From a virus (taxonomy: Duplodnaviria; Caudoviricetes), in the IMG/VR virus record IMGVR_UViG_3300036985_003045: a DNA stretch of 64,000 nt, one strand, 5' to 3'. The translations under genes were made by a program, and so were the position numbers. The notes below the pieces were generated by a model. That model was not told where the DNA came from. It saw only the letters and a program-made list of their open reading frames with translations, and did no database searches. Shown piece after piece: positions 609-4,872 of this stretch (position 1 is its first letter; the number at the start of each line of letters is the position of its first letter).

Positions 609-899
609 CTATAAAATTATTTTTGAAGTTGGAACTACAATTGGACTAAATACTCGTTTATATTCAGTTACAAGTGCTTCAGCAGGAGTTGCTTCAATAG
701 CTATTGAATGAAAGTATACTTTAATAGTACCTTGTGCAAAAGGCATCACAGGAGCTATAGCAACTCTTACACCTGATTCTGTTTCTTGAAGGACAATATT
801 GGCAGGATTCTTAATTTCATACCATATATTAGTAATATTAACTACTTCACCAATCATATCTTCCCCAATTTGGGATTTAAAAACTCTTATATCACTCAT
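609..899 (-). CDS. conserved T4-like small protein, probable Sm-like beta-barrel
   Basis: The pattern IRVFKSQIGEDMIGEV...IKNP...IAPVMPF...P...L..EY..VF resembles the small protein commonly found near hsp20 in environmental T4-like phages. The fold is inferred. Confidence 0.6.
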   Translation of the reverse strand: MSDIRVFKSQIGEDMIGEVVNITNIWYEIKNPANIVLQETESGVRVAIAPVMPFAQGTIKVYFHSIAIEATPAEALVTEYKRVFSPIVVPTSKIIL

Positions 900-916
900 T
901 ATATTCTCGCTTTAGT

Positions 917-1000
917 AAAAAGGAACCTCCCGTGGTGCGCTTCACGTCCCTTGTCATCCTAAGATGCTTCTATTATGGGCGTAGAGAGGCGTGGGAGGTA
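917..1000 (-). ncRNA. candidate structured small RNA (about 80 nt)
   Basis: 925-999 is 56% GC in an AT-rich genome. It has a closing stem 925-931/993-999 and nested stems, an AATAAATA box at 1005-1012 upstream and a U5 run at 917-921 downstream. Confidence 0.55.
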
Positions 1001-1007
1001 TTATTAT

Positions 1008-1469
1008 TTATTCAGTCAATAATTCAACATCATACTTGCCATCACCAATAAGAATCTTTTTCGGTTTCTTATGCTCTGGAATAACATTTTCAAGATAAAT
1101 GGATAAAATACCATCAATGAATTCCGCATCTTTTACGATTACGGTCTCTGCTAGTTTTATTGTTTTCTTGAATGGTTTTGCACTAATACCTTTATGGAGG
1201 TATTCAACTTCATTATCAAATTCACCTTTAGTACCAGCCATAATAAGAACACAATCTTCAACGGTAATTTCTAGTTCTTCCCTGGAAAAACCAGCAACTG
1301 CCAATTCAACAACATATTCATTGTCATTGTATTTAATGATATTATGGGGAGGATACTTATTTGATAATTGATAGTCACTTGATACTCTTTCCATATCTTT
1401 AAGTAGCCTTTCAATGCCTACGAATTGATTTAGGTGAGCACCAAAAGCCATATGTGCGGTTGTATTCAT
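1008..1469 (-). CDS. hsp20: small heat shock protein Hsp20 (IbpA-like)
   Basis: YPPHNIIK...ELAVAGF...YLHKGIS...DGILSIYLE..IPEHKKPKKI alpha-crystallin signature. Confidence 0.95.
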   Translation of the reverse strand: MNTTAHMAFGAHLNQFVGIERLLKDMERVSSDYQLSNKYPPHNIIKYNDNEYVVELAVAGFSREELEITVEDCVLIMAGTKGEFDNEVEYLHKGISAKPFKKTIKLAETVIVKDAEFIDGILSIYLENVIPEHKKPKKILIGDGKYDVELLTE

Positions 1470-1600
1470 ACTGCGTCTCCATTTCTGCGAGATTAAAATT
1501 TTCTATCCTTACGGCATAGAAGGTTAGGTTCCAGTTACGAATCTGGAATACCTCTTACGTGGGTATCGATCTGCGGACATCCAGGTCCTTCACGCACTAT
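1470..1600 (-). promoter_or_regulatory. multi-hairpin 5' UTR, ROSE-like RNA thermometer candidate
   Basis: Five consecutive hairpins. The last, UCUC(G)CA-GAAA-UG-GAGA (1476-1492), pairs the SD sequence with a bulged G opposite it. Confidence 0.65.
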
Positions 1601-1654
1601 TATTTAAAGTCTATAGTGATAAAGACTACCTACCTCGGGAGAAGGAGTGTTCTT

Positions 1655-3956: not shown

Positions 3957-3986
3957 AATGTCTCCATAGTAAATAAGTCATGATAC

Positions 3987-4675: not shown

Positions 4676-4872
4676 AATGTCTCCATATTTTTAATTTTTC
4701 GTTGTATAATCACTTCAAGGTAATTTGCCAGATCCATCGCTTCTTCTTGAGCATGGATCAACCATTGTAACTCTGTTAAGTCTTCTCTTTCTAGAGAAAC
4801 TCCATATTTCTCCAAACCAAACTTAGCTCTTTTTTGTATTTTTTCACATACTGCATCTTCGTACTTACTCAT
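4672..4872 (-). CDS. small all-alpha protein, possibly MazG-like NTP pyrophosphohydrolase fold
   Basis: GLEKYGVSLER.DL...WL.HAQEEAMDLANYLE: EE..D acidic helix pattern. Confidence 0.45.
   Translation of the reverse strand: MSKYEDAVCEKIQKRAKFGLEKYGVSLEREDLTELQWLIHAQEEAMDLANYLEVIIQRKIKNMETL

Follow-up and report, generated by a model that had tools for sequence, protein, structure and literature searches.

A ROSE-derived two-hairpin leader precedes hsp20 in a freshwater T4-like phage and may act as a temperature-graded brake on its translation

The window, by which we mean the whole 64,000-nucleotide stretch of DNA that was analysed, is part of the genome of a freshwater T4-like phage with a GC content of 32%. 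On its minus strand, gp55, gp45, gp44, gp62 and regA lead into a 71-aa ORF (1655-1870), and a 185-nt intergenic stretch separates this ORF from hsp20 (1008-1469). Downstream of hsp20 lies a gene for a 96-aa conserved T4-like protein of unknown function (phrog_527; 609-899, minus strand). The nearest relatives, with Hsp20 identities of 78-94%, form a single long-stemmed clade with a support of 100/100, and the best RNA-library source for the window is a freshwater sediment metatranscriptome. One locus of this clade, with 90% identity (L233, G001:C1), belongs to a contig of 103 kb that was assigned to the MAG of an uncultured Luteolibacter, which is possibly a host hint or possibly a mis-binning. 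In another hsp20 locus (L052:815-1244), a phage-encoded permuted tmRNA sits directly upstream of the gene. The features around hsp20 are as follows.

913..999, minus strand: terminator-like hairpin ACCUCCCA...GGGAGGU with a U-tract after hsp20; abiF-RNA-like interior with a 39-nt insert; an RNA contig ends at 906
1008..1469, minus strand: hsp20, IbpA-like small heat-shock protein of 153 aa (PF00011, E 2.4e-14; phrog_432; alignment to Salmonella IbpA)
1476..1492, minus strand: ROSE hairpin II, UCUC(G)CA-GAAA-UGGAGA, with bulged G1488 opposite the SD GGAG (1480-1477)
1501..1521, minus strand: ROSE hairpin I, UUCUAU(G)CC-GUAA-GGAUAGAA, with bulged G1515; lower stem strongly covarying across phages
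1529..1594, minus strand: optional structured module of about 66 nt (three upstream hairpins), outside the ROSE unit
1595..1627, minus strand: predicted H-type pseudoknot, S1 AGUC 1627-1624 with GACU 1611-1608, S2 CACUAU 1618-1613 with AUAGUG 1600-1595
1633..1645, minus strand: conserved small hairpin CCUU-CUCCC-GAGG marking the 5' boundary of the conserved intergenic block (CCUC/GAGG in L001, CCUU/AAGG in L011)

The two hairpins nearest to hsp20 make up a ROSE unit of about 55 nt. The initial annotation had described the SD as paired in a hairpin with a GNRA loop and a bulged G opposite the SD, and this is indeed what is found, with UCUC(G1488)CA closing over GAAA onto UG-GAGA and 7 nt between the GGAG and the hsp20 AUG. 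It had also described the preceding hairpin as a repeat of the same bulged-G design, and the arms UUCUAU(G1515)CC and GG-AUAGAA around a GUAA loop bear this out; this hairpin I contains no SD, and its design is that of the Rfam ROSE_3 consensus GAU(G)CC...GGGUC. Both the MFE and the centroid structure of 1467-1525 consist of hairpins I and II, with core pair probabilities of 0.8-1.0 at 37 C. Folding energies are unremarkable (z -1.9 for the 149-nt leader and z -1.2 for the core) and prove little by themselves; the support for the two hairpins is comparative.

For this comparison, hsp20 loci were gathered from viral, metagenome and cultured-phage collections and their leaders were then read, giving 85 distinct leaders that include the window and two bacterial controls. 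The motif Y-U-Y-G-C-N...N-GGAG stands just 5' of the start in 74 of the 85, the base opposite the last G of GGAG being C in 70 leaders; as the match is defined by it, the G bulge opposite the SD is present in each of these 74. Hairpin I with its bulged G accompanies the motif in 72 of these 74 leaders, against a mean of 8.65 in shuffles, and the bulge is specifically G, as the counts with another bulged base are 23 for A, 5 for U and 2 for C. All four Watson-Crick pair types are found at positions 2-5 below this bulge. An alignment of 41 distant leaders made with MAFFT and left unfitted has 90% of its cells paired, against about 50% when slid, and shows 58 double changes where 17 are expected from shuffles. 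A covariance model (R1) built from these 41 phage leaders, none of which belongs to the window's clade, matches 1467-1530 over its full length with 34.6 bits (E 3.7e-8); this is the sole strong match in the 64 kb, the next best scoring 14.3 bits. In several loci without the motif, R1 detects the element farther upstream, at a distance of about 250-370 nt, ahead of a small ORF with which the operon begins. In six loci (L061, L067, L078, L183, L187 and L234) the ROSE leader precedes an ORF of 70-85 aa ahead of hsp20, so that the element there would control the operon's first gene. Carriers of the leader include cultured methylo-, pelagi- and cyanophages. In the Synechococcus phage S-CAM3 (L084:737-803) the start annotated for hsp20 should lie 75 nt farther upstream, where an ATG has an SD and a ROSE-like leader.

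Rfam reaches these leaders less well. The ROSE_3 model (RF02523), with a gathering score of 43 bits, gives 69 bits to the Pseudomonas-type control and 24-34 bits, below the cut-off, to distant phage leaders, that of phage Melnitz scoring 34.1 bits (E 0.001). No Rfam ROSE match was found in the window at E<=10, and searches of the window and L002 gave no ROSE, riboswitch, ribozyme or ToxI match. Nevertheless, the R1 match, the covariation and the ROSE_3 consensus with the same two bulged Gs together mark the core as homologous to the short ROSE leaders found before ibpA in Pseudomonas. Judged by sequence comparison, the core is thus a real, conserved, ROSE-derived two-hairpin leader, and the ROSE-type identity that had been proposed for the SD-pairing hairpin is backed by the phage hsp20 leaders. 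The window's leader is a ROSE by anatomy, but it fails the literal motif and the Rfam threshold.

The likeness to the Pseudomonas ibpA short ROSE extends to two hairpins within about 55-60 nt before a small heat-shock gene, the U(G)CC bulge of hairpin I, the pairing of GGAG in hairpin II with a bulged G between C-G pairs, the same SD register and an AUG outside the stem. The Pseudomonas two-hairpin leaders are proven thermometers in which hairpin II melts and hairpin I does not (Krajewski et al. 2013, PMC3669281). Unlike ROSE_3, the window's leader belongs to a lytic T4-like phage, carries UCGCA/UGGAG rather than U(U/C)GCU/AGGAG, has GNRA loops and a shorter upper stem, shows no evident sigma32 promoter and no Rfam match, and is preceded by a clade-specific pseudoknot and an optional module. 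With the enterobacterial ibpA/ibpB thermometers (ROSE_2, RF01832; Cheng et al. 2023, PMC10474464) it shares an anti-SD, CUC(G)C, identical to that of Salmonella ibpA over five bases, as well as an IbpA-type protein with Tyr34; it differs from them in the Lys that replaces Arg93, in its shorter leader and in the flipped closing pair. That departures from U(U/C)GCU can be functional follows from the ROSE-G motif, which, like the window's leader, is a sequence variant of the ROSE anti-SD and has been shown to work as a thermometer; ROSE-G precedes bacterial ABC transporter genes instead (Mills et al. 2025, PMC12857270).

In the window, the literal U(U/C)GCU anti-SD is absent and UCGCA stands in its place, but the partner on the SD side has changed from A to U, so that the pair is kept and the closing pair of hairpin II, A1486-U1481, is a flip of the usual U-A (UCGCU/AGGAG to UCGCA/UGGAG). 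The SD-pairing helix, the loss of which in close relatives would have spoken against the original proposal, is accordingly retained, with a compensatory change. Above the bulge, 61 leaders have a U-A pair, 8 have A-U and 1 (L011) has G-U, the A-U and G-U forms occurring among these leaders only in the window's clade; a separate distant lineage (L241, L294) also has A-U. The tree suggests two independent origins of the flip, but the AU test does not reject a single origin (p 0.146). UGGAGA also serves as the SD at the clade's gp45 and gp44, and the simplest reading is therefore that the SD context changed first and that the anti-SD then followed to keep the pair. The longer string ATGGAGAC (1475-1482, 3960-3967 and 4679-4686, minus strand) occurs in the window only at the ribosome-binding sites of hsp20, gp44 and gp45, three copies being within chance by count (12/100 shuffles). 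In T4, gp44 and gp45 are targets of RegA; in the window, regA stands two genes upstream of hsp20.

How would such a leader respond to temperature? Hairpin II is predicted at -8.6, -7.2, -5.9, -4.2 and -3.5 kcal/mol at 5, 15, 25, 37 and 42 C, respectively, by nearest-neighbour models, which ignore the non-canonical pairs of ROSE stems. Hairpin I is predicted to be the more stable of the two at 37 C (-6.9 vs -4.2 kcal/mol), and removal of the bulged G is predicted to stabilise hairpin II by about 4 kcal/mol. The predicted unpaired fraction of the SD rises from 0.0002 at 25 C to 0.004 at 42 C, an increase of about 25-fold that stays below 1%; a P. aeruginosa-type control goes from 0.005 to 0.054, about ten times above the window's leader. 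Nearly every other SD region of the window is predicted to be more accessible than that of hsp20. Many of these ordinary SD regions also slope with temperature in the predictions, and since control regions rise as well, the accessibility curves do not discriminate. The models thus indicate strong occlusion of the SD, and the predicted accessibility is compatible with a thermometer, without being a test of one. When 1650-1452 was folded without pseudoknots, the predictions for the window and L002, unlike that for L001, had 1646-1632 invading hairpin II by pairing with each of its strands; this invasion may be an artefact, as L011 breaks one of the invading pairs.

We regard it as probable that 1476-1521 is a phage-borne short ROSE leader of two hairpins that acts as a temperature-graded translational brake on hsp20. 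Hairpin I would fold first and hold hairpin II in register; in the cold, hairpin II would block loading of the 30S subunit, and warming would open it progressively, so that Hsp20 output could climb with temperature with no need for the host's heat-shock sigma factor. A quite unlikely alternative is a leader that came along with the gene from proteobacteria and serves as a fixed attenuator and stabiliser of the mRNA; it would set a low and constant rate of Hsp20 synthesis and respond little over the temperature range of stream sediment. The lower stem of hairpin II, capped by a GNRA loop, is indeed predicted to be more than 95% paired up to 50 C, the SD of the clade is predicted to be less accessible than that of other phage leaders, and hairpin I has been proposed as a transcript stabiliser in Pseudomonas (PMC3669281). 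However, a fixed attenuator has no need for a destabilising G bulge opposite the SD, the loss of which would add about -4 kcal/mol. Thermal melting alone, on the other hand, does not explain why the bulge is specifically G in hairpin I, which does not melt and has no SD; folding geometry or recognition accounts best for the bulge there. In P. putida, deletion of the bulged G did not abolish induction (PMC3669281).

Recognition leads to the protein itself. The IbpA of E. coli, Cedecea and Vibrio binds its own thermometer leader and represses it via Arg93, and R93K abolishes this self-repression in E. coli (PMC10474464). By analogy, the twin bulged-G hairpins might mainly be a protein-binding operator, at which phage Hsp20 or host IbpA represses until it is titrated by misfolded or assembling proteins, so that the leader senses folding load rather than, or besides, heat. 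The precedent of these three bacteria speaks for such an operator, as do the wide retention of Arg93 (87 of 99 aligned proteins, Tyr or Phe being present at position 34 in 99 of 99) and the Y(G)C/GR bulge, which is kept twice, once in the hairpin that contains no SD. The window's Hsp20, however, has Tyr at the Y34 position of IbpA and Lys at the R93 position (YLHKGISAKPF), as do all intact members of the clade at the latter, and by analogy to E. coli it probably cannot repress the leader in the manner of IbpA; yet the leader is intact. Its retention in a lineage with a Lys93 Hsp20 favours an intrinsic function of the RNA. In addition, phage C48C1 combines Lys93 with a canonical leader, and L241 and L294 combine the flipped pair with Arg93, indicating that the RNA and residue 93 are not tightly coupled; co-evolution of the flip and R93K cannot be claimed in any case, since a single long branch holds both. 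A host protein may still repress the leader despite the Lys93 of the phage protein. We therefore consider a mainly protein-binding role unlikely, and retain the temperature-graded brake as the preferred reading of the two hairpins.

The initial annotation had proposed a leader of 130 nt with five tandem hairpins; all five inverted repeats do exist on the minus strand at the coordinates given for them, but the MFE structure of the whole leader has four loops, not five, at least four loops are also formed by 138 of 500 shuffles, and the hairpins at 1547-1567 and 1529-1548 overlap at bases 1547-1548. The ROSE unit being only about 55 nt, a five-hairpin thermometer of 130 nt is not supported: the three upstream hairpins are an optional, clade-specific module that is absent from 5 of 12 clade variants (L002, L003, L004, L006 and L010). 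Exact-pattern scans did not find the module outside the window's clade. Across 6 closely related sequences, the compatible changes in its pairs are one double and one single, which does not exceed the shuffles, and GCGUG 1595-1591 has a possible alternative partner in CACGU 1561-1557. In an informal comparison, no required core of an HDV-like, twister, pistol or hammerhead ribozyme, of a preQ1 or SAM-II riboswitch or of a ToxI antitoxin could be matched to the module. The motif CGUGAAG is common to the two flanking RNAs, as is expected in 19% of shuffles.

Further upstream, the predicted pseudoknot has the same parse in 12 of 12 clade variants, with stems that have changed yet stay complementary, as against 2 of 500 shuffles; S1 is GGUC/GACC in L006, and S2 is CACUUU/AAAGUG or UGCUAG/CUAGCA in others. 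Together with the small hairpin it forms a clade-specific element (1595-1645, minus strand) with a U-rich loop 1, an A-rich loop 3 and no Rfam match. The octamer TTTAAATA at 1608-1601, one mismatch away from the late box TATAAATA, consists of the last base of S1 and the A-rich loop 3 of this pseudoknot. The octamer is thus present where the initial annotation had placed a late box, but the promoter is not backed, as the octamer is unconserved, lies inside a covarying pseudoknot and is crossed by RNA contigs. It is kept in 5 of 12 variants and replaced by TTTAAACA, CTTAAAAC, CTCAAAAG, CCTAAAAG or TTTAAAGA in the other 7, in which the flanking stems covary. A perfect TATAAATA stands 15-45 nt ahead of the starts of the phage's own late genes, and TTTAAATA is a frequent octamer, with 10 occurrences on each strand. 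RNA-library contigs from three studies run across the supposed box to 1634-1642, although an internal start may exist in addition. For these reasons, and because three of the five hairpins are missing from 5 variants, we find it highly improbable that a gp55 late promoter at 1601-1608 starts a 130-nt leader which works as one complex ROSE thermometer. That the phage encodes gp55, that T4 tolerates single deviations and that classical ROSEs reach four hairpins all fit this model, as does the perfect TATAAATA directly before hairpin I in 13 of 65 other phage leaders vs 1 of 61 in the background; none of these perfect boxes is in the window's clade. A search for sigma70-like promoters found none that exceeded chance, nor any close to the 5' boundary of the conserved block.

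The RNA contigs show no strand, start or level. Two of them end cleanly at 1634 and 1638, and a break at 1642 in X1/X2 is a strain junction. One contig of 731 nt spans 906-1634, from the upstream hairpin to just past the terminator-like hairpin after hsp20; as contigs give neither starts nor strand, a discrete RNA of about 730 nt is a weak hint only. The hairpin at 913-999 is likely the 3' end of the hsp20 mRNA. The clade's leader is probably carried by a longer RNA, with a 5' end at about 1640 or farther upstream and a 3' end at this hairpin, rather than by a late transcript initiated at 1601. The pseudoknot and the optional module would be separate elements, which might most plausibly serve to protect or mark the 5' end. 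The interior of the terminator-like hairpin resembles abiF RNA (RF03085), which matches 925-998 (minus strand) with 33.3 bits across the 39-nt insert, the gathering score being 37. Insert-free copies with the same flanks in unrelated phages (L205, L218, L223 and L230) reach 44-47.5 bits, and such copies neighbour tRNA-Asn-like genes or follow another hsp20 at a distance of 78 nt; in L010-L012, the hsp20 gene is followed by a plain terminator alone. AbiF toxins have the abiF motif as their RNA antitoxin (PMC12373285), and such abiF-like RNAs could by analogy be phage decoys.

ROSE thermometers are known from bacteria. About three phage thermometers are on record, none of them ROSE-type (PMC11182007): lambda cIII, SPbeta blyA (a fourU element) and a fourU before a sigma70 gene (PMC4166951, PMC11182007). 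The window's leader resembles them as a phage-encoded structure over a ribosome-binding site, but none of them controls a phage chaperone, and cIII is an alternative-fold switch that closes on heating. Our literature search found no paper on ROSE elements in phages, and the genome papers of Melnitz, S-CREM1 and S-CREM2 do not mention the ROSE leader. As a wider and rather unlikely possibility, aquatic T4-like phages of many hosts, cyanophages among them, may use the twin bulged-G motif as both thermometer and chaperone-binding site, and hence possess a post-transcriptional stress circuit of their own. The window's clade would have re-wired this circuit: its closing pair is new, the arginine needed for self-repression is gone, and the same transcript would bear two undescribed structured RNAs, a pseudoknot module upstream and an abiF-like hairpin downstream, that could act as decoys for the toxin-antitoxin defences of the host.

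Hsp20 is encoded by more than 90% of T4-like cyanophages (PMC10665884). A conserved leader would let water temperature or folding stress tune this near-core viral gene directly at the level of translation. The canonical leader is present in the cultured phages Melnitz, Mosig and S-CAM3. The window's clade itself is a natural experiment, in which the leader is kept while the signature pair is changed and Arg93 is lacking, so that thermosensing would be separable from self-repression by the chaperone.
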